Assembly (NCBI GenBank): GCA_963790205.1
Contig: CAWBNQ010000003.1
Span: 608,785-672,784 of the forward strand
Reading direction: 5' to 3'
Length of the DNA: 64,000 nucleotides
Source: Nitrospirota bacterium
GTDB lineage: Bacteria; Nitrospirota; UBA9217
Made by a program: the position numbers and the translations under genes
Notes under the pieces: model-generated
What the model was told of the DNA's origin: nothing
Databases searched by the model: none
What the model saw: only the letters and a program-made list of their open reading frames with translations
Shown: piece after piece, positions 4,396-55,866 of the stretch
Layout of the letters: every line of letters begins with the position of its first letter
Position numbering within the stretch: the first letter of the stretch is position 1

Positions 4396-4767
4396 ATGGC
4401 AACGAGCAGGATCATGGTAATAGACGACGAAAAGATCGTGGGCGACATGGCGAAGCTGTCGCTCGAGCAGGACGGCTACGCAGTCGAGACCTTTCTGAAC
4501 GCCGAGCCTGCGCTCAAGCGGCTGCAGGAGGAACAGTTCGACGTCGTGGTGACCGACTACAAGATGAAGGGCATCGATGGGATGGAGGTGTTGAAGACCG
4601 TCAAAGAGCATTATCCGAAGACCCAGGTCATCATGATCACAGCCTTCGCCAACCTCGACGCCGCCATCGAGGCGCTCCGGCGGGACGTGCACGACTTTTT
4701 CCCCAAGCCGGTCAAGATTAAGGAACTGAAGGCGTCCATCAAGCGGGCGCTGGAAAAACAGGCGTGA
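4396..4767 (+). CDS. Stand-alone response-regulator receiver (CheY-like REC domain).
   Basis: IMVIDDE...D...K receiver motifs. RBS AAGGAGA before the ATG at 4396. No output domain. Confidence 0.8.
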   Translation: MATSRIMVIDDEKIVGDMAKLSLEQDGYAVETFLNAEPALKRLQEEQFDVVVTDYKMKGIDGMEVLKTVKEHYPKTQVIMITAFANLDAAIEALRRDVHDFFPKPVKIKELKASIKRALEKQA

Positions 4768-4927
4768 TGAGGGAATGATAAATCCCAAACAGCAAATCAT
4801 AGATTACAAATCTTTTCTAATTTTCAGGAGCATAATGGCCAAAGCCTTTTAAATTTGGATCTTGGCGCTTATTTGATATTTGGCGCATGCGATTCGGGCA
4901 TTTTCGATTGTCCACAGGAATGCATAG

Positions 4928-7501
4928 ATGAAGCGATTAGCCGCAAAAATTCGTTCACTGCTCCGGGTCATCGCGCTCCGGCGCCGCAACCGGGGGTCCT
5001 TCGAGCGGCTGTTCAACGGCTTCCGCGATGTGCTGGACCGGAACAACCGGTCACTTGAGATCATCACGGACATGGGCGATACGCTGGGCGGGGACTACCT
5101 GTTCGACATCCAGTACGTCAGGCGCTCCTATGCCGAGCTGTACGCGGCCATGGACGGATCACTCACCAGTTTCAACAATCTCACGCAGAACAGATACCCG
5201 AAACTCCATGACGTATTCTCGGCCATAGACGGCCAGATCAGACGCATGATCGACGAGTCCACGCCGGTGTCCGACGCGCTCATCATGTTCTACGAGGAGG
5301 TCACCGCAGACATGGCAGTGGCCGTCGGGGGCAAGAACGGCAATCTCGCCGAGATAAGGAATACCGTAAAGCTCAACGTCCCGGACGGCTACGCCGTAAC
5401 AACCCGGGCCTTCGACGTTTTCCTCCGTCACAACCATATTCTGGAAAAGATACAGCTGCCTGATGACAACGCTCCTGTTTCCGATGCGATGATCCACGAA
5501 ATGCGAGAACTGGTCCTGCACGGGACCATGCCTCCCGAACTCAGCCGGGCCATGGAGAAGGCCGTCAAGAGGATCAAATCCCGATGCGGCGCGGACTGCA
5601 CCCTGGCCGTACGGAGCAGCGCCGGCGAGGAAGACGGGGACTTTTCTTTTGCCGGACAGTTTGAAACAATCCTGAACGTTCCCGCTGATCCGGCGGCAAT
5701 CGGGAAGGCGTACCGGAAGGTGGTCGCGAGCCTCTTTTCCGAAAAAGCGCGGGCCTATCAATCGCGGCTGGGCCTTGATGTCCGGGGCATGAAAATGGCC
5801 GTGGCCTGCGTGGTGATGGTGGACGCAGCGGCGAGCGGGGTACTGTACTCGGTTGATCCCCAGGGAAACCGCGAGACCATGGTCATCAACGCCGCCTGGG
5901 GACTGGGAACGGCGATTGCCGAGGGGCAGACGGACGCCGATTTTTACCGGATAAAGAAAACCGGCCCCCTTGAAATCGTCGAAACGCGGACAGGCGCAAA
6001 GGACACCATGGTCGTATCACGCTCGAGCGGCGGGGTGGCGTCCGTTGCGACCCCCGAGCAAAAGAAAAAAGAGCCGAGCCTTACGCGGGCTCAGGCCCAG
6101 GAGCTAGCCCGGATGGCGCTCCTGCTTGAGAAGCATTTCAAGAGGCCGCAGGACATCGAGTGGGCGATAGACCAGAAAGGGAAAATCTTCATCCTCCAGT
6201 CTCGGCCGCTCAGGATGCACGAGGACAACGCGGGTGATACAACCGCGGCCCCCGCGATGCCTGATGCGAAGGTCATTGCCAGGAACAGGGGCGTCGTCGT
6301 GCAGAAAGGCGCGGCAGCGGGCCGGGCCTTTATTCTGAAAAACGATCGCGATCTTGATTCAATCCCGCGCGGGGCCATCCTCGTTGCGCACCGTGACTCG
6401 TCCCATTTTGTCCGTGTGATGACGACGGTATCCGCGATCATCACGGACATTGGAACGCCCACGAGCCATATGGCGGCCCTGTGCCGGGAATTCAGGATCC
6501 CCACTGCCGTGAACGCCGGCAACGCGACGCAAATGCTCAGCCAGGGGCAGGAGGTCACCGTCCAGGTCGAGAGCGACGGCGCAACATTCTACGACGGGCT
6601 GATCAGGCAGATCGTGGATCAGGCGGAGAATGACTCTGCGAAGATGGAGGACCTCTTCGAGTTCCGCAGGAAACGGTATCTTCTTCGCTACATTGCGCCG
6701 TTGAACCTCGTCGATCCCTTGAAGAACGAGTTTACGCCGCAAGCCTGCAGGACCATGCACGATATCCTGCGTTTCATCCATGAGAAGTCCGTTGCCGAGT
6801 TGATCGAAAACGCCGAGAAGGTCAGGACCGGCGCTGTTAAACTGGACCTGCCGATCCCCGCAGGGATCATGCTCATCGATATCGGCGGGGGACTGGACAA
6901 CCCGGAAGGGCGGGGCCATGTTGCGCCGGAACAGGTAACCTCATTACCGCTCCGGGCGATCATTACCGGAATGACCAGGCCCGGGGTCTGGCGCTCCGAC
7001 GCGGTGCCGCTCAGGGTCAATGACTTTATGGCGAGCATGTTGCGTGTGCCGGACATCACCACCGACGCGGGCGGCCGCGTGGAGCAGAACATGGCGGTTA
7101 TCTCGCGGGAATACGCGAACATCAACCTCAAGTTCGGCTACCATTTCATCATCCTGGACTGCTTTTGCAGCGAGAACACGAGGAACAACCACATCTATTT
7201 CCGCTTCGCCGGCGGCGCCACGGACATGACCAAGCGGTCCCGGCGGCTGCAGCTCATCGCCGCGATCCTCGAAGAGTACGGGTTCAACATCAAGACCAAA
7301 GGGGACTTGATCGTGGCCCGGCTGGCGAACATCCGGCAGCAGGAAGCAGAGGACCTCCTCGACCATATCGGCAGGCTCTTTTCCTACACCCGGCAGCTCG
7401 ATGCCGTGCTCAACGATGACCTCTCGGTCGAACGCTACGCGCGTTGCTTCCTTGAAGGGAATTACGAACTGGCAGCGTCCGGGGAGAGTTCTAAAAAATA
7501 G
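4928..7501 (+). CDS. PEP-utilizing enzyme family protein (PpsA-like pyruvate,water dikinase homolog).
   Basis: N-terminal PPDK_N-type nucleotide-binding domain and a central PEP-utilizing mobile His domain (GVVVQKGAAAGRAFIL...TSHMAALCREFRIPTAV). The C-terminal about 350 aa is atypical. Confidence 0.65.
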   Translation: MKRLAAKIRSLLRVIALRRRNRGSFERLFNGFRDVLDRNNRSLEIITDMGDTLGGDYLFDIQYVRRSYAELYAAMDGSLTSFNNLTQNRYPKLHDVFSAIDGQIRRMIDESTPVSDALIMFYEEVTADMAVAVGGKNGNLAEIRNTVKLNVPDGYAVTTRAFDVFLRHNHILEKIQLPDDNAPVSDAMIHEMRELVLHGTMPPELSRAMEKAVKRIKSRCGADCTLAVRSSAGEEDGDFSFAGQFETILNVPADPAAIGKAYRKVVASLFSEKARAYQSRLGLDVRGMKMAVACVVMVDAAASGVLYSVDPQGNRETMVINAAWGLGTAIAEGQTDADFYRIKKTGPLEIVETRTGAKDTMVVSRSSGGVASVATPEQKKKEPSLTRAQAQELARMALLLEKHFKRPQDIEWAIDQKGKIFILQSRPLRMHEDNAGDTTAAPAMPDAKVIARNRGVVVQKGAAAGRAFILKNDRDLDSIPRGAILVAHRDSSHFVRVMTTVSAIITDIGTPTSHMAALCREFRIPTAVNAGNATQMLSQGQEVTVQVESDGATFYDGLIRQIVDQAENDSAKMEDLFEFRRKRYLLRYIAPLNLVDPLKNEFTPQACRTMHDILRFIHEKSVAELIENAEKVRTGAVKLDLPIPAGIMLIDIGGGLDNPEGRGHVAPEQVTSLPLRAIITGMTRPGVWRSDAVPLRVNDFMASMLRVPDITTDAGGRVEQNMAVISREYANINLKFGYHFIILDCFCSENTRNNHIYFRFAGGATDMTKRSRRLQLIAAILEEYGFNIKTKGDLIVARLANIRQQEAEDLLDHIGRLFSYTRQLDAVLNDDLSVERYARCFLEGNYELAASGESSKK

Positions 7502-7570
7502 TATTTCCCGAGTTACTCCATACATCAGGGTGCGCAGGATTCCCGGGGCAAGGGGCGCGCTATCGGAGAG

Positions 7571-7891
7571 GTGACGGAAATGGCCGCAGGAAACAACGAC
7601 AAAAAAAACATATCGAAACATATCCTGCCGGCGTCTTCAAATCTTCTCGGGTTATGCTTTTTGATCCTGACGCTCAAGAAGCTCTGGAGGGGCAACAGCG
7701 TGGTTCAGTTCATGGACAAGCTGGATGCAGTAGCGATCCTCATTTTTCTTGCCGCCAGTTTCCTGTCGTACGCATCCATGCGCGTGACACGGCGGGGAGA
7801 TCTGTACGAAAAGGTTGCAGATGCCGTCTTCCTTGCCGGTTTGCTCTTGCTGTCGCTCATAGCGGTCGTGACGGCTTTTGAACTTGCATAG
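7571..7891 (+). CDS. Hypothetical small membrane protein.
   Basis: Three predicted TM helices. No family match recognised. Confidence 0.3.
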   Translation: MTEMAAGNNDKKNISKHILPASSNLLGLCFLILTLKKLWRGNSVVQFMDKLDAVAILIFLAASFLSYASMRVTRRGDLYEKVADAVFLAGLLLLSLIAVVTAFELA

Positions 7892-26276: not shown

Positions 26277-27920
26277 TCACCGCTGCTGCGGCCCTTCTTG
26301 CCGCTCTTCGCGATTTTGTTTCTGCTGTTTCTGCTGTTTCTGCTGCTTCTGAGGCGTCGCCGGGCGCCTGTTTATTTCCCGCGGCTCCTTCATCTTTCTG
26401 ACCGGCAGGTTCTCCGGCTGCTGCTGCCTGAACACCGACGATTCACGTTCCTTAACCACCCTGCGCTCCTGTTTCATCTCTTCCGGATTGGTGTTCCTGA
26501 CCCGTGCCGGCGGAAGCTGCCGCTCAGGCGTCCGCTGCGTCGCACGCGGAGGACGTTCTTCCCTTTCCGGCCTCACGGCAGGCGGGGTCGCCGGGGTTAT
26601 GCGCCGCGTTTCGGGAGCTTCCGACCGTATCCGTTCAGGGACGCGCTGCTTCATCTGTTCCCGTTCTGCCCGCGGCACAAGGACGATCGGCTGCTTCGGC
26701 TTCGCCCGGGGAGGGACGATGGCTATGTTCCTGATATCCTGTTCTCTCTGCTGTCTCGTCTCAAGGAAAGGGTTCTCCTTTATCTTCACCCGTTCATGCC
26801 TGCCTGTCCCAAAGGCCTCCCGCTGCACCACGGTCACCGAGTTGTTGACCCGTGCGTTGACGTAGGTACGATTGACGAATACCGTATTGACATTGACGTT
26901 GGTGATGTCCACGCTCCCGGGCCCGTAATAGCCGTACCCGTAATAGACCTCCCCGGGAGCGAGCGGCACCCACGCCACGTAGGTCGGCGTCACGACCCAG
27001 CCCACATAGCCCGGCCCCCAGAAGGCGGCGCCCCTTGCCGGCGGCACCCAACACCAGCCGCGGCCTCCTATGAATACCCAGCGGCCGTAATGGCAGGGCG
27101 CCCAGCCCCAGGGATCATAGTCGATCCAGACAGAGATTCCCCTGATCCAGACCCAGCTGCCGTAGCTGTAAGGCGCCCAGCCCGCAGGCACCGCGGTGGG
27201 GGCCCAGACATAGCCGTAGTCGCCCGTATAGCCCCACTGGCCGTTCCGGTCGAAATCGGACGAGTATTCATGGAGCTCATCGGGAAGATAACGGGAACTC
27301 TCTCCCCAGGCCGTGAGCTGCCGGTCCCGGTCCGCGTTCCAGCGTTCCCATTCGTCTGGCGAACCGATGGGCGCGATCTCGGCATTGCTCTCACTTCGGA
27401 TCGTCAGGGTGTTCCCCGCGTTCACGCGCGTGGCGCCCGCCCTGCTCTCGGCATAGACGTAACCCTTGAGCACCGAGACCTCGGTTGCGCCGTCAAGGTC
27501 GGAGACGTCGATCATCATGATGGAATTATCGTAACTGCGGAGAGACGACAGCGGGGTATCGACCTGGACGGTCTCGATCCCGCCGCGCCGGTTATTGATG
27601 TAGATATGGCCCTGGTCGAGATAGAACTGCGCGGATTCGTGGCTTATGGTCAGAAGGTCCAGTGCCGTATTTCCATCACCCCGGACATAAACGCCCCCTT
27701 CGATCTGAAGCTCGGCCTTGCTTTCTTCGGAGACCCACAGCCGGTCGCCCTCATTGAGCGGCAGGTTGATGGCAGCATCCGTCCAATCCGTGGTGTCCTT
27801 GATGAGCGTCTGTACGTCGCCGTCGATCAGGCTCAATCGTACGAGCCCGAGGTCGTCGGCAAATACCAGCCCCGGAAGCAGCATAACGCCGAGCAGCATC
27901 GCATATCTTATCCATCGCAT
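26277..27920 (-). CDS. Secreted FecR-domain protein with a low-complexity basic C-terminus.
   Basis: Signal peptide. FecR-like block (LIDGDV...GDRLWVSEESKAELQIEGG). W/G/Y-rich middle region. RE-rich tail ending in (QKQ)n. Confidence 0.5.
   Translation of the reverse strand: MRWIRYAMLLGVMLLPGLVFADDLGLVRLSLIDGDVQTLIKDTTDWTDAAINLPLNEGDRLWVSEESKAELQIEGGVYVRGDGNTALDLLTISHESAQFYLDQGHIYINNRRGGIETVQVDTPLSSLRSYDNSIMMIDVSDLDGATEVSVLKGYVYAESRAGATRVNAGNTLTIRSESNAEIAPIGSPDEWERWNADRDRQLTAWGESSRYLPDELHEYSSDFDRNGQWGYTGDYGYVWAPTAVPAGWAPYSYGSWVWIRGISVWIDYDPWGWAPCHYGRWVFIGGRGWCWVPPARGAAFWGPGYVGWVVTPTYVAWVPLAPGEVYYGYGYYGPGSVDITNVNVNTVFVNRTYVNARVNNSVTVVQREAFGTGRHERVKIKENPFLETRQQREQDIRNIAIVPPRAKPKQPIVLVPRAEREQMKQRVPERIRSEAPETRRITPATPPAVRPEREERPPRATQRTPERQLPPARVRNTNPEEMKQERRVVKERESSVFRQQQPENLPVRKMKEPREINRRPATPQKQQKQQKQQKQNREERQEGPQQR
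26310..26345. repeat. 9-bp tandem repeat (TTCTGCTGT x about 4) inside the CDS, encoding (QKQ)n.
   Basis: Read directly. Confidence 0.6.
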
Positions 27921-45836: not shown

Positions 45837-46664
45837 TTATACCTTCAGGCTTTCCTTATACACATCTTTTTTAGGCAGGCCGAGCTCTTCCGCGGCGGCA
45901 GCGATGGCTTCTTTCTTGCTCAGGCCGCGATGCAGCATGAGGTTTTTGAGGAATTCCGCAGTGTCGATGTCCTGCTTAAGCGGCTCCGCTGATGCCCCGT
46001 GCACGATGACCGTGAATTCTCCTTTTATCGTTCCGTGCTGCAACCGGCTCAGAAGCTCGGAAAGTGTTCCCCGGATCGTTTCTTCATGGATCTTGGTCAG
46101 CTCCCGGGTAACGACCGCCCGCCGATCGCCGAAGACTTCGAGCAGGTCCTCGACGGTCCCGATGATCTTATGCGGGGCTTCGTAGAAGATGATCGTGCGT
46201 TCTTCTTTGACAAGCTCCCGGAGACGTTTAAGCCGGGCCATACGCTTTGCCGGGAGAAAGCCTTCGAATACAAAGCGGTCCGTGGGAAGGCCGGAGATCG
46301 AAAGCGCCGCAATGGCCGCTGTAGCGCCGGGGATGGGGACCACGGGGATTTTCTGGTCTACGGCCAGGTTGATCAGGAAGTAACCGGGATCGGAGATGCC
46401 GGGAGTGCCTGCATCGGAAACGAGAGCGAGGTTCTTGCCTTCGAGGAGCCGTGCCGCGAGGACCGGGGCTTTCTCTTCTTTGTTATGGTCGTGATAGCTC
46501 GTGAGCTGCGTTTCTATTTGATAGCGGTCGAGCAAATGCCTCGTATGGCGCGTGTCCTCGGCCGCGATCAAGTCGACTTCCTTGAGCACGCGGACCGCCC
46601 GGAGAGTGATGTCCTCGAGGTTCCCGATGGGGGTGGCGACTATGTAGAGTATTCCTGATTGCAT
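45837..46664 (-). CDS. rsmI: 16S rRNA (cytidine1402-2'-O)-methyltransferase.
   Basis: GILYIVATPIGNLEDITLRA ... tetrapyrrole-methylase fold. Confidence 0.85.
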   Translation of the reverse strand: MQSGILYIVATPIGNLEDITLRAVRVLKEVDLIAAEDTRHTRHLLDRYQIETQLTSYHDHNKEEKAPVLAARLLEGKNLALVSDAGTPGISDPGYFLINLAVDQKIPVVPIPGATAAIAALSISGLPTDRFVFEGFLPAKRMARLKRLRELVKEERTIIFYEAPHKIIGTVEDLLEVFGDRRAVVTRELTKIHEETIRGTLSELLSRLQHGTIKGEFTVIVHGASAEPLKQDIDTAEFLKNLMLHRGLSKKEAIAAAAEELGLPKKDVYKESLKV

Positions 46665-46677
46665 AAAGTCAAAGGCG

Positions 46678-46810
46678 GTTTCTCGCAAAGCTCGCAAAGG
46701 GCGCCAAGGAAACCAAAAACAAGAACAAGGATTTGTCTTTCAAACAAATCTTAATTCAGGTTTAATTCTTAGCTTTTCTTTGCGCCCTTTGCGAGCTTTG
46801 CGAGAAACAG
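46678..46810. repeat. Inverted-repeat element copy 1: 21-bp perfect terminal inverted repeat TCTCGCAAAGCTCGCAAAGGG / CCCTTTGCGAGCTTTGCGAGA around an AT-rich core of about 60 bp.
   Basis: Read directly. Intergenic between rsmI and nadE. Confidence 0.7.
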
Positions 46811-46857
46811 ATCTGATCTTTTGCTGTTTCTTTATTATCTTCTCGCGAGAAATAGTC

Positions 46858-48582
46858 TTAATAGCTTTTGTACCTGTTCGTGATCGGGAACCTTCTATCT
46901 TTCCCCAGTCCCCTTGGCGTGATCTTGACCCCGGGAGGGGCCTGGCGGCGTTTGTACTCGCTGGAATCCACGAGCCGGATCACGCGCTCCACGGTCTTCC
47001 GGTCGAAGCCCATCCTGATCATCTCGTCGAATTCCCTGTCGTCCTCGACATAGGCCTTGAGGATCGGGTCGAGCACCTCGTACTCGGGCAGGGAATCGCT
47101 GTCCTTCTGGTTCGGACGGAGCTCCGCGGTCGGCGCCTTCACGAGGACGCGTTTCGGAATGACGGTCCTGCCCGCAAGGCGGTTGACGCACCTGCAGATG
47201 TCATAGACCAGGGTCTTGGGAACGTCCTTGATCACGGCAAAGCCCCCGGCCATGTCGCCGTAGAGCGTGGCATAGCCCGTGGACATCTCGCTCTTGTTGC
47301 CGGTGGTGAGCACGAGCCAGCCGAACTTGTTCGAGAGCGCCATGAGAATATTGCCCCTGATCCGCGCCTGCAGGTTCTCTTCGGTCACGTCCTGCTTCGT
47401 GTGCGAAAATATGCCGCGCAGGGTGTTGAGAAAGGCATTGAAGGGCTGGTGGATGGGGATGCTGAACATCTTAATGCCGAGAGTCCGCGCGAGCTCGGTC
47501 GCGTCCTCGCAGCTTTCGTCGGAGCTGAACTCCGACGGCATGAACACGCCGTGGACGTTTTCCCTGCCGATGGCCGCCACGGCGACGGCGGCAACGAGGG
47601 ACGAGTCGATCCCGCCCGAAAGGCCGATGACCACGGACCTGAACCCGGTCTTTTTCATGTAATCCCGCGTCCCGAGGACGAGCGCGCGGTATACTTCTTC
47701 GCACAGCCTGTAGGGCCGCGCGATGCGTGCGGGAGGCAGCGGTTTTTTCCTCGCACCCGGCTTGTCCGAAATGACGACGGAATCGATCGTATCCCGGTGT
47801 TCGTCGAGGATCAGCTCTGACGTCGTGTCCGCGCCGCGGCGGGGCGGGCCGGGAAGTTTTATGTCGTAGGAGATAAGCTCTTCCTCGAACTGCTTTCCGG
47901 CCGCGAGCAGATTCCCCTTCGGGTCCAGGATCATGCTGTGGCCGTCGAAGACCAGCTCGTCCTGCCCGCCGACGGTGTTCGTGTACACGATGAAGACGTT
48001 GTTCTCTTTCGCGCGGAGGGCGAGCATCCGCCGGCGTTCTTTGCCTTTCCCCTTATGATAGGGCGAGGCGTTCACGGCTATGATGATCTCGGCGCCTGCC
48101 AGGGCCTGGGTACGGGCGGGACCGTCGGCGTACCAGATGTCCTCGCAAATGTTGACGCCGATATTCACGCCCTTGACCGTGATGACGGGGAAGCGCTTCC
48201 CCGGCTTGAAGTAGCGGTATTCATCGAACACGCCGTAGTTCGGGAGCAGCATCTTGTGATAGACATGGACGAGCTTGCCGTTGCTCATGATCGCCGCGGC
48301 GTCATAGATGTGGTCGTTCGAGTCCACGTATCCGACGATCGCCGTGATGCCGCGCGTCGCTCTCGTGATCTCCCTGAGCGTGCGCAGGTTGTCCTTCACG
48401 AATTGCGGCTTGAGAATGAGGTCTTCGGGCGGATAGCCGGTGACGGCGAGCTCGGTGAAGGCGACGATATCGGCGCCCTGCTTCTTCGCGCGATCGATAT
48501 ACTCGATGATCTTGTCCCGGTTGCCCTTGAGGTCGCCCACAGTGGGGTTTATCTGGGCCATGGCGATGCGGAGTGTTCTCAT
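46858..48582 (-). CDS. nadE: Glutamine-dependent NAD+ synthetase (nitrilase-like domain plus PP-loop domain).
   Basis: 574 aa. N-terminal CN-hydrolase (MAQINPTVGDL ... E ... K ... C) and C-terminal SGGIDSS PP-loop. Confidence 0.9.
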   Translation of the reverse strand: MRTLRIAMAQINPTVGDLKGNRDKIIEYIDRAKKQGADIVAFTELAVTGYPPEDLILKPQFVKDNLRTLREITRATRGITAIVGYVDSNDHIYDAAAIMSNGKLVHVYHKMLLPNYGVFDEYRYFKPGKRFPVITVKGVNIGVNICEDIWYADGPARTQALAGAEIIIAVNASPYHKGKGKERRRMLALRAKENNVFIVYTNTVGGQDELVFDGHSMILDPKGNLLAAGKQFEEELISYDIKLPGPPRRGADTTSELILDEHRDTIDSVVISDKPGARKKPLPPARIARPYRLCEEVYRALVLGTRDYMKKTGFRSVVIGLSGGIDSSLVAAVAVAAIGRENVHGVFMPSEFSSDESCEDATELARTLGIKMFSIPIHQPFNAFLNTLRGIFSHTKQDVTEENLQARIRGNILMALSNKFGWLVLTTGNKSEMSTGYATLYGDMAGGFAVIKDVPKTLVYDICRCVNRLAGRTVIPKRVLVKAPTAELRPNQKDSDSLPEYEVLDPILKAYVEDDREFDEMIRMGFDRKTVERVIRLVDSSEYKRRQAPPGVKITPRGLGKDRRFPITNRYKSY

Positions 48583-48628
48583 AAGGTTCTCACTAAGATA
48601 ATTATAAAATCAACAAATGCTGGAAGCA

Positions 48629-49115
48629 GGTTTCTCGCAAAGCTCGCAAAGGGCGCAAAGGGAGGCATAAGTCCAAGTTAAAATCAAAGGCCATTCGCGA
48701 TACGGGTAATGCCATCCTTCATCAGTTCGACATTGAAATTGACAAGCAAACCCAGCTTCTTTTTAGAGAGCTTCAGGTAAGTCAATAATTGCTTCTTGTG
48801 AACCGGAATGACGTTTTCGATAGATTTTAATTCTATAATAACTTTGTCATCTACCATAACATCAGCTCTGGATCCGATGTCCATCGTGATTTCATCATAC
48901 ACAACAGGGACGTCTACCTGGTTGGTAGCCTTGATGCCAAGTTTTTTAAGCTCATAAACGAGTGCAGCTTCATAAACAGACTCCAAAAGGCCAGGGCCGA
49001 GGGTCCTGTGAATTTTCACACACAGGTCAACAACAATTTTGGCTATTTCGTTTTCCGACAATACTATCGCTCCTCAGCCTTCCTTTGCGTCCTTAGCGAG
49101 CTTTGCGAGAAAAAT
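48629..49115. repeat. Inverted-repeat element copy 2, carrying a GxxExxY gene.
   Basis: The same 21-bp terminal inverted repeats as copy 1, at 48629-48665 and 49082-49115. Confidence 0.7.
48684..49061 (-). CDS. GxxExxY-family protein.
   Basis: 125 aa: LGPGLLESVYEAAL ... the family motif. This family is classically encoded in 23S rRNA intervening sequences. Confidence 0.75.
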   Translation of the reverse strand: MSENEIAKIVVDLCVKIHRTLGPGLLESVYEAALVYELKKLGIKATNQVDVPVVYDEITMDIGSRADVMVDDKVIIELKSIENVIPVHKKQLLTYLKLSKKKLGLLVNFNVELMKDGITRIANGL

Positions 49116-50270
49116 GACTCTTCGCTTCTTCTATCACGTCCTTGAGCGGCACCTGTTTCTCCTCCGCGAGCCGTCTACAATCCTCATACTCCGGCGTGGC
49201 TGTCAGCACTTCCTCTCCACGCCTGCTTATCTTTACCCGGATCTTACCATATGTTGTATCGACTTCCTCGATCTCACGCGTCAGTTTCTTTCTGTCCACT
49301 TCCCGGATACGGACGCCGATGCTCGTGGTCTCTCGGAAGATGGTGTCGAGCATCGCTTCGGTTTTGGTCTTATCCGTGAGCACCGAGAGCAGGATTGCGG
49401 GCCTTCCTTTTTTCATGATGATCGGCGTAAGATACGCGTCCTGCGCCCCCTGCTTCATGAAGTTTCTCGATGAGGTAATCATAGACCTGCGGGTTCATAT
49501 CGTCAATGTTTGTTTCGATGACGATCGAGGTGTCCTCTTCATAGGCGGCGGCCGGTTCTCCGATCATGAGCCTCAGGACGTTCGGCTGGTCCGGAATTTC
49601 CCTGCCTCCCGCCCCATGCGCTATGCGGCTTAACCTCATGTGGGGCAGGGGGCCGAACGATGAAGCCAGTGTGCTCAGGAGAACGGCCCCGGTCGGCGTG
49701 GTGAGTTCGAAGGGGATCGAAGAGCCGTACGAGGGAATACCCTTGAGCAGCTCGGCCGTGGCAGGGGCGGGGACGGGCAGGGTCCCGTGGGCGGTCTTGA
49801 TCGTACCCGACCCCACGTTCACCGGCGAGCCGACAATGGCTGTGACATCGAGCAGCTCAAGGCCGATGACTGACCCGACGATATCCACGATCGCATCCAC
49901 AGCGCCTACCTCGTGAAAGTGGACCTTGTCAGGCGTTGTGCCATGGACCCTGGCCTCCGCTTCTGCCAGCCGATCGAAAATAGTGATGCTTTTCTGCTTG
50001 AACGGACGAAGAGAGGGTAGATGCTTCGATCAACTTTTTTATATCCGCAAGATGGCGGGCAGGCTGCTCCTTCTCATCGAGGCAGACATGCACCTTGGTT
50101 GCCGGGATGCCGGAACGCATCACCTTCAAGGCCGTGATCTCATATCCCGGCAAATTCAGCTTCTCCAGCTCCGCACGCAGGATTTCGATGGCCACACCCG
50201 CGTCCACGAGCGCACCCAGGGTCATGTCGCCGGATATGCCGGAAAAACAGTCGAAGTAAGCAAGGGTCAT
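49093..50270 (-). CDS. larC: Nickel-pincer cofactor biosynthesis protein LarC (DUF111), split into three ORFs by two frameshifts.
   Basis: N-terminal MTLAYFDCFSGISGDMTLGAL. ORFs 49929..50270, 49370..49900 and 49093..49482 are co-linear LarC pieces in different frames. Confidence 0.7.
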
Positions 50271-50290
50271 AGTTTAAACCAAAATCGAAG

Positions 50291-50458
50291 GCTTGTCTCT
50301 CGCAAAGCTCGCAAAGAGAGGCATTTAAACAAGTAAAGCAAATTTAAGTTTTGTCTTAAAACCAAGAAAAACTAAGACTACTGCTTGCTTTTGGTTTTAA
50401 ACGAAAAAAGATTCTGACTCAAGATCCCCTTTGCGACCTTTGCGCCTTTGCGAGAAAA
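50291..50458. repeat. Inverted-repeat element copy 3.
   Basis: TCTCTCGCAAAGCTCGCAAAGAGAGG ... CCTTTGCGCCTTTGCGAGAAAA termini around an AT-rich core. Intergenic between larC and larB. Confidence 0.65.
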
Positions 50459-50470
50459 AAGGTCTTAGGC

Positions 50471-51223
50471 TTATTCTCCAAGAATATTTATCCTGTGCGC
50501 CAGCACTCCGGCCCCGAAGCCGTTGTCGATGTTCATCACGGCAATGCCCGCGGCGCAGGAGTTGAGCATGGTGAGCAGCGGGGCCAGCCCCTGGAACCCC
50601 GCGCCGTAACCCACGCTGGTTGGCACGGCGATCACGGGCTTGTCCACGAGTCCGCCCACGACCGAGGGGAGCGCGCCGTCCATGCCCGCGACAACGACGA
50701 TCACCCGCGCCGCGTCGAGGACCTCCCGCTTGCTCAAGACGCGGTGGATGCCGGCCACGCCCACGTCGTACACGGTCTGCACCGTGCTGCCGAGCATATC
50801 CGCCGTGACCGCAGCCTCCTCGGCAACGGGAATGTCCGATGTGCCCGCGGTCAGGACAAGGACCATGCCATTGGTGAGAGTTTTTCTTTTATTCTGAATC
50901 ACGATGGAGCGGGAGGCCTTGTGGTAGAGGGCGCGGCGGTCGAGCTTTTTGACCGCCTTATAAACCTGCTCGTCCGCCCGGGTAGCGAGGACATCGCTCT
51001 TATTGGCCAGCATGCGCTGCGCGATGCCGACGACCTGATCGATTGTCTTTCCCTCGCAGTAAATGACCTCGGGCATCCCGTGGCGCAGATGACGATGGTG
51101 GTCGATGTGCGCATAAACGATGTCTTCGAAGGGCAGGTGCTTGAGCCGGTTGAGCGCGGCCTCGACATCGGTCTTGCCGTCGCGGACGCTTTGAAGAAGT
51201 TTGGTGAGGTCTGATTTATTCAT
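50471..51223 (-). CDS. larB: Nickel-pincer cofactor biosynthesis protein LarB (PurE-like carboxylase/hydrolase).
   Basis: PurE-like fold (TAGTSDIPVAEEA ... VAGMDGALPSVVGGL) with a LarB-specific N-terminal domain. Confidence 0.7.
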   Translation of the reverse strand: MNKSDLTKLLQSVRDGKTDVEAALNRLKHLPFEDIVYAHIDHHRHLRHGMPEVIYCEGKTIDQVVGIAQRMLANKSDVLATRADEQVYKAVKKLDRRALYHKASRSIVIQNKRKTLTNGMVLVLTAGTSDIPVAEEAAVTADMLGSTVQTVYDVGVAGIHRVLSKREVLDAARVIVVVAGMDGALPSVVGGLVDKPVIAVPTSVGYGAGFQGLAPLLTMLNSCAAGIAVMNIDNGFGAGVLAHRINILGE

Positions 51224-51246
51224 AGGGGCTATTTATCCACGGATTA

Positions 51247-51318
51247 CGCAGATTTCACAGATTAAATCAAGGCCGGAATTCGTTGTCTTAAAATCTGTGG
51301 CCATCTGCGAAATCTGCG
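51247..51318. other. Long imperfect hairpin (CGCAGATTTCACAGATT ... AATCTGTGGCCATCTGCGAAATCTGCG) between the gpsA stop and the larB start.
   Basis: Read directly. Followed by CATTCSG heptad tandem repeats at 51345-51375. Confidence 0.5.
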
Positions 51319-51373
51319 GATAGATCGGTTTAATGTCTTTTCTGAATGTCGCATTCGGCATTCCGCATTCGAA

Positions 51374-52379
51374 TCATTCTTCTTTCAACTCTCTGGACAT
51401 AAGGTCTCTTACCGCCCGTTTCGGGTCCTTGCCCTCGTACAGGATCAGATAGACCTCATCCACGACCGGCATGTCGACGTTGAACTTTCTGGCCAGGTCC
51501 CGGGCCGCCCGGGCCGTCTTCACGCCTTCGGCCACGGTCTTGACGCCCTTCATGATATCGTCCAGCTTTTCACCCTTGCCGAGCCGCACGCCGAGCGTCC
51601 GGTTGCGCGACAAACCTCCCGTGCACGTGAGCACCAGATCGCCCATGCCGGCGAGACCGGAAAAGGTCTCGAGGTTGCCGCCCATGGCGACGCCGAGGCG
51701 GGCCATTTCTGCTAAGCCCCGCGTGAGCAGGGCCGCGGCGGTGTTGTAGCCGTAGCCCATGCCTTCGAGCACGCCGGCCGCGATGGCGACGACGTTCTTG
51801 AGCGAGCCGGCAAGCTCCACGCCGATGACATCGGGATTGGTATAAATGCGGAAATAGGCGTTGCTGAAGATTTCCTGCGCTTTCCTGCCGAGAGCGGGGT
51901 CGTACGAAGCGAGAGAGACCGCGGTGGGCATCTTTTGCGCCACTTCTTTGGCGAAGCTCGGGCCGGAGAGGAAGCAGAGCCGGTTATGATACTCGTTTCG
52001 GCAGGATGTCCCTGAACACTTCCGAGAGCGGCATAAGCGTGTCGATCTCGATTCCTTTCGAGGCGCTCACGAGGACCGTATCGTCCGACAGAAACGGCGC
52101 GAATTGTCCGGACACGGCGCGCACGGTGTGGGAGGGGACAACGGAAAGGATCACAGCCCTGCCCGCGACGGCCGCTTCCATCGAAGCGGTCACCTTGATC
52201 GAGGCGGGCAGGGTGAACCCGGGCAAATAGACCCGGTTCTCCCGGGTGCGCGACGTCTCCTCGGCCAGGTCCTTCTCGTACATCCAGAGGGTGACGTCGT
52301 GCCCCTTGTCCGCGAGCAGCATGGAAAGGGCCGTGCCCCATGCGCCTGCGCCGATTACCCCGATTCTCTCAGTCATCAT
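51374..52379 (-). CDS. gpsA: Glycerol-3-phosphate dehydrogenase [NAD(P)+], split by a frameshift near 51950-51985.
   Basis: N-terminal IGVIGAGAWGTALS Rossmann motif (ORF 51984..52379) and C-terminal GpsA domain (ORF 51374..51943) in different frames. Confidence 0.8.
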
Positions 52380-52496
52380 GGGCCATTATAAGGGTAATGA
52401 GATTGCCTGTCAAAAGGTTTATGGGGAAGGACAGGGAGAAGAACCTCCACTCTTCGGAAAAGGGGCAGTTTCAGGCTTTCGCCCGCGATCATTTGC

Positions 52497-53913: not shown

Positions 53914-55866
53914 GTGTACGCTCGGCACGGGCGTGAGCTAATGGGGTGCAAGTCCTCTGTACGAGAACCAGAGTAGCACAAGTACCAGCCCAAGGCAAGG
54001 GCGGAAGGGCGACCGACCGTCTGAAGGAAGCCTAACGGCAAACGTGCGAGCCGACGGACAGAAACCGCATACAAGGCTTAGCCCTCGGGTGAGTCAGCAC
54101 CACATGACGAAGCCCACTGGTTCAGGGGATAGGGTAAATGCGGCGGTTGCGCACGGACAGTTCACGTTCTTATCCGGGGAGATCTGCGCGACATGCGATA
54201 GGATCGTCATGAGAGAATCCGGGACGGGTCAACCCGGCAAGCAAGGCCCCGGCGTATCAGCGGCTGTCGCCTGATACGAGTCCCGCTTTCGGGAGATACG
54301 AATCAGACAGCATCTCATGCCGAACCCCTGTAGCGCCTTCTTTGGAAACAGAGACGGTGAGCGCGCAGAAGTCAGCAGACGGCATAGTAGTCCCGGACTA
54401 CTCGGGACGAAGGCCAGAACGCGGAAAGGAGGAAGGGCAATCCATAAGCTCTGGGACGGTGATGAGTCCGACACGGATGAGCCGATCCGGGCGCGTTATG
54501 GAGAGACAGCCCACTCGAATGACCACAGTGGAAGACGTTGTAGGCAGTGAGAACATGCAGCAGGCATGGCAGCGGGTCAAGGCGAACAAGGGAGCAGCCG
54601 GCATCGACGACATGTCGATTACGGACTATCCCGAATTCGCCAGGACCAACTGGCCAAGAATCAAAGCCTCCTTGCTGGACGGGACGTATGATCCCACTCC
54701 GGTCAAGAGGGTCGAGATTCCGAAGGACAACGGGGGTACGAGGCTTCTCGGCATCCCCACGGTCTCCGATCGCGTTATTCAGCAAGCGATCACCCAGGTG
54801 CTTGTCCCGATCTTCGATCCCCACTTCTCCGAATCGAGCTATGGGTACAGGCCGGGCCGCTCGGCGCATCAGGCTGTAAAGAAGGTGGTTGAGTTGATCA
54901 ACCAAGGATACCGCTACGCCGTTGACATCGATCTTGCGAAGTTCTTCGATAACGTCAATTGGGACGTGTTGATGAGCCGGGTCGGTAGACGCGTCACGGA
55001 CAAGGGCATCCTCAAACTGATCGGCAAATACCTTCGGGCCGGAGTCGTCGTAAACGGCAGGCTTACCCAGACCACCAAAGGAGTGCCGCAGGGCGGGCCG
55101 CTTTCGCCGTTCCTGTCGAACATTCTTCTGGATGATCTCGACAAAGAGTTGGAGAAACGGGGGCATCAGTTCTGCCGGTACGCCGACGACCTTATCATTC
55201 TGGTAAAGTCAAAGCGTGCCGGAGAGCGGGTGATGAAGAGCGTCACCACCTTCCTTGAAAAGAACCTCAAGGTGCAGGTGAACAGGGACAAGAGCAAGGT
55301 GGGAAGCGCGGAGTCCAGCATCTTCCTCAGCTTCACGTTCCATCTCAAGAGGCCCACTGTCTCCCGGAAGGCGTTCACGAACTTCAAGAATGAACTCAAG
55401 GACCTTACGGGCCGCAGCTGGGGTGTATCCATGAAGCACCGATACGATAAAATCCGGACCTACTTACAGGGCTGGATGAACTATTTCGGAATCGGTATGC
55501 GGTACAACGATGCGGTCGAACTGGATCAGCGGCTCCGAAGACGCATTCGGATGTGCTATTGGAAACAGTGGCGCACGACGAGAAAGCGCGTCGGGGAGCT
55601 GATGAAACGCGGGGTGAGTGAACATCGCGCAGTATCGGTCGGCATGAGCAGGAAGAGCTACTGGCATCTTGCTAAGAACGAAGCCATCAATGTCGGCCTG
55701 TCCAATGCCTATCTCAAGGAACAGGGGCTTACCTCGATCAGAACACTGTGGATCAAGATTCACCATCCGGCTACGGCCCGATAGTTTTCTGCGAATCGCC
55801 TAGTGCGGACCCGCATGCTAGGTGGTGTGGGGGCTGGGGGCTAAACACCCCCGGCTACCCGATTAA
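53914..55866 (+). mobile_element. Group II intron (attC-associated, class C-like), antisense to the cassette genes.
   Basis: A structured 5' region of about 430 nt with no ORF. The RT/maturase ORF lies in the domain IV position. DV/DVI-like hairpins at about 55805-55860, ending about 8 nt before the next cassette ORF stop. Confidence 0.7.
54342..55784 (+). CDS. Group II intron reverse transcriptase/maturase (RT domains 0-7 plus X; no En domain).
   Basis: The YADD motif (FCRYADDLIILV), RT blocks (PQGGPLSPFLSNILLDDLD) and a maturase/X region. The probable real start is an internal Met near 54500. Confidence 0.9.
   Translation: METETVSAQKSADGIVVPDYSGRRPERGKEEGQSISSGTVMSPTRMSRSGRVMERQPTRMTTVEDVVGSENMQQAWQRVKANKGAAGIDDMSITDYPEFARTNWPRIKASLLDGTYDPTPVKRVEIPKDNGGTRLLGIPTVSDRVIQQAITQVLVPIFDPHFSESSYGYRPGRSAHQAVKKVVELINQGYRYAVDIDLAKFFDNVNWDVLMSRVGRRVTDKGILKLIGKYLRAGVVVNGRLTQTTKGVPQGGPLSPFLSNILLDDLDKELEKRGHQFCRYADDLIILVKSKRAGERVMKSVTTFLEKNLKVQVNRDKSKVGSAESSIFLSFTFHLKRPTVSRKAFTNFKNELKDLTGRSWGVSMKHRYDKIRTYLQGWMNYFGIGMRYNDAVELDQRLRRRIRMCYWKQWRTTRKRVGELMKRGVSEHRAVSVGMSRKSYWHLAKNEAINVGLSNAYLKEQGLTSIRTLWIKIHHPATAR

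Follow-up and report, generated by a model that had tools for sequence, protein, structure and literature searches.

What maintains a family of palindromes in successive gaps of a single bacterial operon, and why should one of them enclose a gene? The question is raised by a 64,000-nt stretch of DNA from a Nitrospirota bacterium (lineage UBA9217; contig CAWBNQ010000003.1, positions 608,785 to 672,784), hereafter the window; all scans of the window cover this whole 64-kb stretch. An initial annotation, made from the letters alone, had pointed out three inverted-repeat elements in the gaps between larB, larC, nadE and rsmI, one of them carrying a GxxExxY gene, and had proposed either modules resembling the intervening sequences (IVSs) of 23S rRNA or a family resembling MITEs (miniature transposable elements with inverted repeats). 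Our analysis leads to a different reading, which we are somewhat more inclined to accept than to doubt: by analogy with the repetitive extragenic palindrome (REP) doublets and their REP-associated tyrosine transposases (REPIN/RAYT), these three elements (E1 to E3), together with a sister family represented by a fourth (E4), would be palindromic repeats coupled to the GxxExxY nuclease. Such elements have been gained, lost, copied and replaced in intergenic gaps, and their arms have been kept by selection or homogenisation. The features concerned are the following.

46678..46808 (131 nt), no strand assigned: E1, gene-less hairpin in the nadE-rsmI gap, recognised by its arms and fold
48631..49112, minus strand: E2, gene-bearing element in the larC-nadE gap, whose arms enclose the GxxExxY open reading frame (ORF)
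48684..49061, minus strand: GxxExxY gene inside E2, 125 aa, TTG start, matching TIGR04256 and PF13366
50294..50461 (168 nt), no strand assigned: E3, gene-less hairpin in the larB-larC gap, a partly decayed copy with arms at about 50294-50322 and 50424-50461
51234..51322 (89 nt), no strand assigned: E4, in the gpsA-larB gap, a hairpin whose heptamers (CGCAGAT/CACAGAT, period 9) belong to a different family, recognised by its fold
51350..51372, no strand assigned: solo array of three GAATGCG units (reading of the gene strand) directly after the gpsA stop, read from the sequence

The 21-mer TCTCGCAAAGCTCGCAAAGGG occurs exactly at 46681-46701 (+), 46785-46805 (-) and 48633-48653 (+), with two mismatches at 49090-49110 (-) and with one at 50298-50318 (+). 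Allowing up to three mismatches, the window holds six matches, against none in 100 shuffles. The three inverted-repeat elements of the initial annotation are thus real, but two perfect 21-nt termini, which it had ascribed to all of them, are present only in E1. The paired arms of E1 and E2 are also longer than those termini (36-40 nt) and have an architecture that the first reading had missed, along with E4 and the solo GAATGCG array: they are tandem heptamers with a period of about 9, in the order TCTC-CGCAAAG-nn-CGCAAAG-nn-CGCAAAG.

E1 presents the clearest form. Its 40-nt arms (46678-46717 and 46769-46808) are 90% complementary and lie 51 nt apart, each consisting of the TCTC terminus followed by three CGCAAAG heptamers at period 9, around an AT-rich loop of 51 nt; the RNA fold (-73.3 kcal/mol, z -12.2) has 27 consecutive pairs inside a longer stem. 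The 36-nt arms of E2 (48631-48666 and 49077-49112) are 92% complementary at a distance of 410 nt and pair over about 33 bp around the ORF (-163.5 kcal/mol, z -5.7). E3 folds weakly (-50.6 kcal/mol, z -2.6); its 3' arm (50424-50461) is a register variant, TCTCGCAAAG-G-CGCAAAG-GT-CGCAAAG, and its loop aligns with one common to dispersed copies in other Nitrospirota. E4 folds at -36.5 kcal/mol (z -6.8). Throughout the window, heptamer arrays are confined to four consecutive gaps of this operon, around the only GxxExxY gene that the window contains.

Covariance-model scanning of the window assigned the hairpins to no Rfam family at the gathering score or the E-value threshold. At relaxed thresholds, positions 46676-46810 (E1) reach 42 bits against the plant pre-miRNA model RF03940, whose gathering score is 90, because E1 is a long perfect hairpin and nothing more.

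The ORF that the initial annotation had placed inside the second element is indeed a GxxExxY gene. It matches TIGR04256 over residues 6-121 with 138.4 bits (cut-off 35, E 1.3e-40) and PF13366 (PDDEXK_3) with 133.4 bits (cut-off 22, E 6e-39), with no other Pfam match. The motif G24-L-L-E27-S-V-Y30 is present, and the PD-(D/E)XK core (E27, D67, E77-x-K79), together with Q91xxxY95, is invariant or nearly so in 32 diverse homologues. No sequence homologue of the protein was found in the PDB. Its AlphaFold2 model has a pLDDT of 95.6, and the solved folds nearest to it are those of Cas4 SSO0001, the CinB nuclease, lambda exonuclease and Hjc, all as weak matches (E ~0.01). The model confidently predicts a PD-(D/E)XK fold like that of Cas4, lambda exonuclease and Hjc, with its catalytic residues intact; a search for defence systems (PADLOC) returned just a weak similarity to Cas4 (E ~1e-3). 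Comparison of the lineages whose gene occupies this larC/nadE junction gives protein identities of 70-89%, dN of 0.07-0.22 and saturated dS; by this measure the protein is under purifying selection, with an estimated dN/dS below about 0.1. The gene has a GC fraction of 0.42, compared with 0.61 for nadE. The family as a whole is large (18,404 clusters at 50% identity, E <= 0.001).

Are the arms peculiar to this operon? A 19-mer, TCTCGCAAAGCTCGCAAAG, was scanned against one-genome-per-species contigs amounting to 596 Gb, and was found in at least 114 genome stretches, where about 4 would be expected (an estimate from 596 Gb x 2 / 4^19). The terminus recurs well beyond the window, in several phyla. 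Nitrospirota account for about half of the stretches listed, and the other hosts are Opitutales, Ignavibacteria/Chlorobi, Bacteroidota, WOR-3, Desulfobacterota and Planctomycetota, the last including the isolate Zavarzinella formosa DSM 19928, in which the CGCAAAG hairpin is present (L028). Single metagenome-assembled genomes (MAGs) hold many copies: at least 12 stretches in MHDY01, at least 8 each in CAWIIS01 and CBDBFA01, and at least 7 in JAGVOT01. A few matches are chance occurrences within coding sequence (loci L015 and L041; loci in other genomes are cited by such numbers). Among the matches listed there are about 50 clean hairpins, mostly 100-135 nt long and gene-less, and a GxxExxY gene is present in one of the at least 114 stretches (L100). 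Among loci picked by arm sequence alone, GxxExxY is the sole gene found enclosed by paired arms of the CGCAAAG type.

The dispersed Nitrospirota copies (L026, L044, L071, L075, L078, L112 and others) share not only the loop but also about 75 nt of outer flank, with CCTAACCCGGACAAGCCGGAACTAAAGGCGTC at one end and AATATTCTTGCCATTTTGGGTAGATTTTAATTCGTAACTTACTAA at the opposite end, giving a repeated unit of about 185 nt in which the hairpin core may lie in either orientation relative to the conserved flanks. The shared loop and flanks indicate that these dispersed elements are copies of one another; no target-site duplication is evident around them. Outside Nitrospirota the loops differ and the arms keep the same word. 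Some elements (L066, L027) have members of other word families nested within them, and in some gaps the arms alternate in orientation or are multiplied in tandem (L123/L126, L040, L109). The gene-less hairpins, placed with a crude gene caller, lie between genes that are co-directional in 15 cases, convergent in 3 and divergent in 3, with no clear departure from expectation. Elements with large cargo were considered and rejected: arm "pairs" 1.8-2.8 kb apart bracket merely ordinary host genes such as leuC and are therefore neighbouring elements.

The converse approach started from the gene. We collected 80 diverse GxxExxY loci from metagenomes, with proteins 48-62% identical to that of the window and host GC fractions of 0.31-0.72. 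Flanking inverted repeats scored above every shuffle in 51 of 69 such loci. In 64 of 73 (88%), heptamer arrays stood no more than 150 nt from the gene, compared with 36 of 1524 background windows (2.4%). The commonest word is CGCAAAG (32 loci), followed by CGCAGAG, CGCCAAG, CACAAAG, CACGAAG and others; an isolate replicon of Bernardetia has a GxxExxY gene with CACAGAG arrays. Distant paralogues, that of Bernardetia among them, adjoin still other words, for example CGCGAAT (a second copy in L130), CAGATT (L208) and TTCATTTG (L215), and some of these paralogues lie in viral contigs. Proteins from loci with the same word are more alike than others (58.1% versus 54.6% identity, permutation p 0.0005). 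The arrays also have a polarity. The commoner arrangement is TCTC(CGCAAAG)n-gene-(CTTTGCG)nGAGA, and the rarer, reversed one, (CTTTGCG)nGAGA-gene-TCTC(CGCAAAG)n, is found in about 12 of 73 loci (e.g. L131, L146, L178 and L200), whose proteins form a clade (62.6% versus 55.0% identity, p < 0.0005). Some GxxExxY genes have a complete hairpin on either side. The gene next upstream points the same way in 55 of 64 loci (median gap about 80 nt), and in 59 of 61 the GxxExxY gene has a higher AT content than the sequence flanking it.

Two of these loci deserve separate mention. L130 carries, at 7263-7745 and directly after rsmI, a second GxxExxY paralogue of 133 aa. A CGCGAAT-type array lies before it and a hairpin behind it; this hairpin folds weakly (z -2.2), and its 3' arm has the same CGCGAAT word. 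The paralogue is an independent instance of the gene-plus-array design with a different word. At about 2001-2375 of L211, an IMG/VR contig, tandem hairpins flank a GxxExxY gene, and their arms pair CGCAGAT with ATCAGCG, which leaves a systematic A-A mismatch at the centre of every heptamer.

These counts bear on one of the two original proposals, a MITE-like family with occasional GxxExxY cargo. The MITE-like character stands in part, since the repeats are multicopy, occur in several phyla and are absent from the closest relative's equivalent junction (below); the gene, in turn, is more than occasional cargo, being the one gene systematically linked to the arms. The corresponding rival, an ordinary MITE family moved by an unlinked classical transposase with GxxExxY as a passenger, would account for the terminal inverted repeats, the small size (131, 168 and 89 nt for E1, E3 and E4, none with a transposase gene), the many copies, the presence/absence polymorphism and a gene that is AT-rich relative to its host, as is usual in mobile DNA. 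We nonetheless consider it quite unlikely. Few paired-arm units enclose an interval long enough for a gene, and those have no transposase between or beside the arms; no parent insertion sequence with the same termini and a transposase was found, and only GxxExxY was ever found enclosed by arms. Arrays at 88% of diverse GxxExxY genes are too systematic for a passenger. Purifying selection on the gene is strong, and several lineages have it fixed at one junction. Apart from a candidate CATTT at E2 (below), no duplication of the target site was identified, and GxxExxY is rare both among plasmids (6 of 72,556 records) and among viral contigs (7 loci).

In Correia elements the target duplication is a defined TA, no gene is associated, and RNase III cuts the folded transcript. 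Like Correia elements (also called NEMIS), enterobacterial repetitive intergenic consensus (ERIC) sequences and other MITEs, the elements described here are small, intergenic, built on inverted repeats and co-transcribed, as we read them, with flanking genes; unlike Correia elements, they show no clear duplication and are systematically associated with a nuclease gene.

How stable, then, is the association at this locus? A gene-bearing element occupies the same larC/nadE junction in L116, L121, L122-129 and L130 as well as in the window, that is, in at least five diverged Nitrospirota lineages whose NadE proteins are 70-77% identical among themselves and to that of the window. Orthologous arms are 85% identical, whereas fourfold-degenerate sites are 33-50% and E1 loops 50-59% identical, so the arms have been either constrained or continually homogenised. 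The junction in three closer relatives reads as follows.

L219 (NadE 93% identical to that of the window; closest relative): larC stop, 8 nt, nadE start, a clean empty site
L220 (NadE 86% identical): a degenerate solo arm, TCACGCAAAGACTCAAAGG
L221 (NadE 77% identical): a possible scar

The initial annotation had asked how orthologous gaps without the insert compare, and L219, which lacks both E1 and E2, provides such a case. Simple vertical inheritance of E2, as the five filled loci might have implied, is not supported in view of the empty site of L219, the solo arm in L220 and the possible scar in L221. The filled and empty junctions (window versus L219) show a candidate CATTT duplication at E2, although their flanks are much diverged. 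Precisely at the E2 site, nucleotide identity between the window and L219 jumps from 83.1% on the upstream side to 91.5% on the downstream side, even though LarB is normally the more conserved protein; the step likely marks a recombination breakpoint. A recent exchange of the cassette between L116 and the lineage of the window finds no support in the nucleotides, the cassette being 77% identical and its flanks 72-75%, even though the protein is 89% identical.

The gene-less elements have had equally varied histories. E1 is present in L116 and L130, is reduced in L121 to its 3' arms around an insertion, and is absent from L219, where another palindrome fills the gap. Over 114 nt that take in the loop, E1 of the window shares 86% identity with the hairpin in the larB-larC gap of L219, which fits copying between gaps; that same larB-larC gap, home of E3 in the window, holds a hairpin in both L130 and L219. 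E4 has a collapsed version in L219 and no counterpart in L130, where the gap measures 27 nt. In L220, AT-rich tandem-word motifs with putative hairpins of the CAAAT/ATTTG and GATTT/AAATC types occupy the larB-larC (4677-4812) and nadE-rsmI (7712-7860) gaps, which suggests that different word families replace each other at the same sites. In L123 (4370-4780) and L126 (3240-3890), both of the GWC2_57_13 lineage, the gaps between the GxxExxY gene and nadE and between nadE and rsmI have expanded to 390-630 nt through tandemly repeated 3' arms, in units of about 50 nt, and through nested CGCAGAG and CGCGAAG/CGCCAAG hairpins. This resembles the bacterial interspersed mosaic elements (BIMEs), mosaic REP clusters of enterobacteria, in that arms are multiplied in tandem and with alternating orientation within one gap (as also in L040 and L109); BIMEs differ in sequence, in architecture and in the linked protein, their counterparts here being heptamer arrays.

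The same history speaks to a further explanation, namely that the elements are host-selected cis-regulatory hairpins (mRNA stabilisers, attenuators or protein-binding sites) with neither mobility nor a link to the nuclease. Conservation of the arms at orthologous positions far exceeds that of neutral sites, the gaps belong to a housekeeping operon, and REP-type hairpins do stabilise upstream mRNA. Yet L219 does without E1 and E2, other relatives have unrelated word families in the same gaps, the same arms adjoin unrelated genes in many genomes and phyla, and the hairpins lack a U-tract or other terminator signature. We regard this explanation as very improbable. The initial annotation had also allowed that the repeats might be absent elsewhere, or be kept in relatives as conserved terminators; they recur in many genomes and, being gained, lost, copied and replaced among relatives, they are not conserved terminators.

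Where the gene lies in E2 is of interest for its expression. In the window, the 3' end of larC enters the 5' arm of E2 (49093..49112, minus strand), and an arm variant, CGCTAAG, supplies the stop codon TAA. In relatives, larC continues across the 5' arm and ends 4-14 nt inside the GxxExxY gene, with ATGA serving as both stop and start in L130. This overlap suggests translational coupling between larC and the GxxExxY gene.

What the hairpins may do in RNA depends on the operon that carries them, which has the following composition (identities from NCBIfam profiles).

45837..52379, minus strand: host operon gpsA-larB-larC-[GxxExxY]-nadE-rsmI
45837-46664, minus strand: rsmI
46858-48582, minus strand: nadE
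49093-50270, minus strand: larC, in three frames
50471-51223, minus strand: larB
51374-52379, minus strand: gpsA
52385..52413, minus strand: consensus sigma-70 promoter TTGACA-17-TATAAT, just upstream of gpsA

The profiles confirm that the elements lie in the gaps of co-directional LarB, LarC, NadE and RsmI genes, all on the minus strand, as originally described. The promoter is likely the start of a transcript that carries all four hairpins. Intrinsic (Rho-independent) terminators were ruled out: the scan that returned the promoter found no terminator-like site coinciding with any hairpin, and no U-tract or T-run follows the stems in the sequences of E1 to E4. Given the promoter and the lack of terminators at the hairpins, co-transcription of the whole block would be the simplest reading, and each element, lying inside the transcription unit, would then be transcribed as a stem.

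Two genes of the operon are broken in the window. LarC is split over three frames (50270-49929, 49900-49370 and 49482-49093) and gpsA over two (52379-51984 and 51943-51374), while relatives have single ORFs of 386-403 aa and 333 aa, respectively. These breaks are likely indel errors of long-read assembly, or else the genes are pseudogenes; a lone programmed larC1/larC2 frameshift would leave the first larC break unexplained.

Transcribed stems of this kind bring us to the other original proposal. The 23S IVS of Coxiella burnetii is 428 nt long with a 28-bp terminal stem and is excised by RNase III (PMC4990558). Two to three tandem heptamers, GACAGAT, stand in it beside the start of a small ORF, which encodes S23p (PMC4990558), a four-helix bundle that a second paper equates with Pfam PF05635 (PMC10053308). 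This anatomy is strikingly similar to that of E2 and to the CRCAGAT arms of E4: in both cases elements of about 430-480 nt have terminal inverted repeats of 28-36 nt that form a long stem, with tandem heptamers in the arm region (GACAGAT in Coxiella, CGCAAAG and CRCAGAT here) and one small ORF in the loop, inside a transcription unit. They differ in the rRNA location of IVSs, in the S23p ORF, in the excision by RNase III demonstrated for IVSs, and in the many gene-less copies found here. The initial annotation had called 23S IVSs the classical home of GxxExxY genes, a premise that found no support; the IVS papers cited here instead give S23p (PF05635) as the IVS ORF.

If the elements were IVS-like RNA modules, RNase III would cut the stems, fragment the polycistronic mRNA and excise the GxxExxY message. 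Such cleavage of co-transcribed stems is plausible, because the stems reach 27-33 bp (27 consecutive pairs in E1, about 33 bp in the arms of E2) and no terminator signature accompanies them; the promoter upstream of gpsA, the matching anatomy of the Coxiella IVS (PMC4990558), and the fact that both array polarities yield the same duplex, as befits a structure-based function, are all in keeping with it. As an account of what the elements are, however, we think it unlikely. An Rfam scan found no rRNA in the 64-kb window, and blastn with E. coli 16S and 23S, run on 209 loci that have either arms or a GxxExxY gene, detected no similarity, a negative that is weak for the hairpins, as MAGs are often without rRNA operons, and a fair test for the 80 and more GxxExxY loci. 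No locus thus lies in or near an rRNA gene, the ORF belongs to PF13366 and not to the S23p family, and what remains of the proposed kinship is a resemblance of architecture. A purely structural role would also leave unexplained the conservation of the heptamer across phyla, its co-variation with the protein, and gain and loss among close relatives.

The reading that we prefer, repeats coupled to the GxxExxY nuclease, draws on REPIN/RAYT as its closest parallel, in which REP doublets accompany a REP-associated tyrosine transposase (PMC3116915, PMC5581495, 10.1101/2021.07.10.451892). Both systems have hairpin repeats of about 100 nt with two inverted arms and many intergenic copies; in both, these arms also bracket a single small enzyme gene (E2 as against the gene-less E1 and E3), which is long-lived at one locus under purifying selection, and the repeat varies with the enzyme lineage. 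The enzymes are different, RAYT being an HUH/Y1 transposase and the protein here a 125-aa PD-(D/E)XK nuclease (PF13366). So are the arms, a single REP palindrome in REPINs and tandem heptamer arrays, with the same word across phyla, in the present case. Unlike RAYT genes, moreover, the GxxExxY gene is patchy among close relatives and compositionally foreign.

Mechanistically, E2 would be the gene-bearing "master" form, and E1 and E3 its gene-less derivatives. The nuclease would recognise the heptamer arrays, probably as hairpin or cruciform DNA extruded from the duplex, as the analogy with REPIN/RAYT would have it, and its cleavage would drive the copying, excision or maintenance of the hairpins. 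The GxxExxY gene itself would stay at one locus, expressed through read-through and translational coupling from the upstream host gene. Once transcribed, stems of about 20-33 bp would be substrates of the RNase III type, through which the mRNA of the operon may be segmented or stabilised and access of the ORF to translation gated; any such effect would be a consequence of the design.

Several observations weigh against this reading. Binding or cutting of the arms by GxxExxY is deduced from their association, and the linkage could reflect co-inheritance alone. PD-(D/E)XK enzymes this small are not known to work as transposases by themselves. Beyond the candidate CATTT, neither a target-site duplication nor the exact ends of the element could be defined. 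The correlation between heptamer and protein is modest and confounded by shared ancestry, and hairpins that have these arms but enclose no gene also occur in phyla for which a cognate GxxExxY could not be checked. The existence of two opposite, clade-specific polarities is not predicted by a simple model of terminal inverted repeats. Finally, the gene is AT-richer than its host and its pattern of similarity is discordant with that of its neighbours, so strict vertical inheritance of the RAYT type probably does not hold.

Extended beyond this locus, the same idea would make GxxExxY proteins a second class of hairpin-specific enzymes, independently evolved PD-(D/E)XK counterparts of RAYTs, each lineage with its own 7-nt word, and ORF-bearing 23S IVSs an rRNA-resident branch of this element class with other cargo; across many bacterial phyla, such enzymes would together create and maintain the heptamer-array palindromes that populate operons. 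We advance this wider picture tentatively and would not expect it to hold in full. PF13366/TIGR04256 is a very large family with no assigned function and is scarcely mentioned by name (GxxExxY) in the literature, and we found no description of the array association in the searchable literature on GxxExxY, PF13366, TIGR04256 and IVS proteins. A near-universal link to one DNA or RNA structure gives the family a concrete hypothesis, open to bench tests. For annotators, it offers a rule for a class of intergenic repeats that may at present be annotated as short ORFs, spuriously. Should the hairpins indeed be propagated or maintained by the nuclease, symbioses of the REPIN/RAYT kind would extend beyond HUH transposases and beyond Proteobacteria. 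The likeness to ORF-bearing 23S IVSs opens a way into the old question of IVS origins. Stems of 27-33 bp in housekeeping operons would also imply an unexamined layer of operon mRNA processing in uncultured lineages.

Other features of the window lie outside this operon. Group II intron RNA domains were detected at 54003-54415 on the plus strand (RF02001, 128 bits; RF01998, 74 bits), overlapped by a 480-aa ORF (54342-55784, plus strand) that is presumed to be the intron-encoded protein. The non-coding segment 13834-13973 contains interleaved inverted repeats, a perfect 19-nt pair (13834-13852/13920-13938) and a 22-nt pair (13875-13896/13952-13973), which are GC-rich and unrelated to the heptamer hairpins. 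Lastly, a perfect tandem nonamer, TGTTTCTGC, is repeated three times with a degenerate fourth unit at 26316-26351, inside overlapping long ORFs, and is probably a coding repeat.

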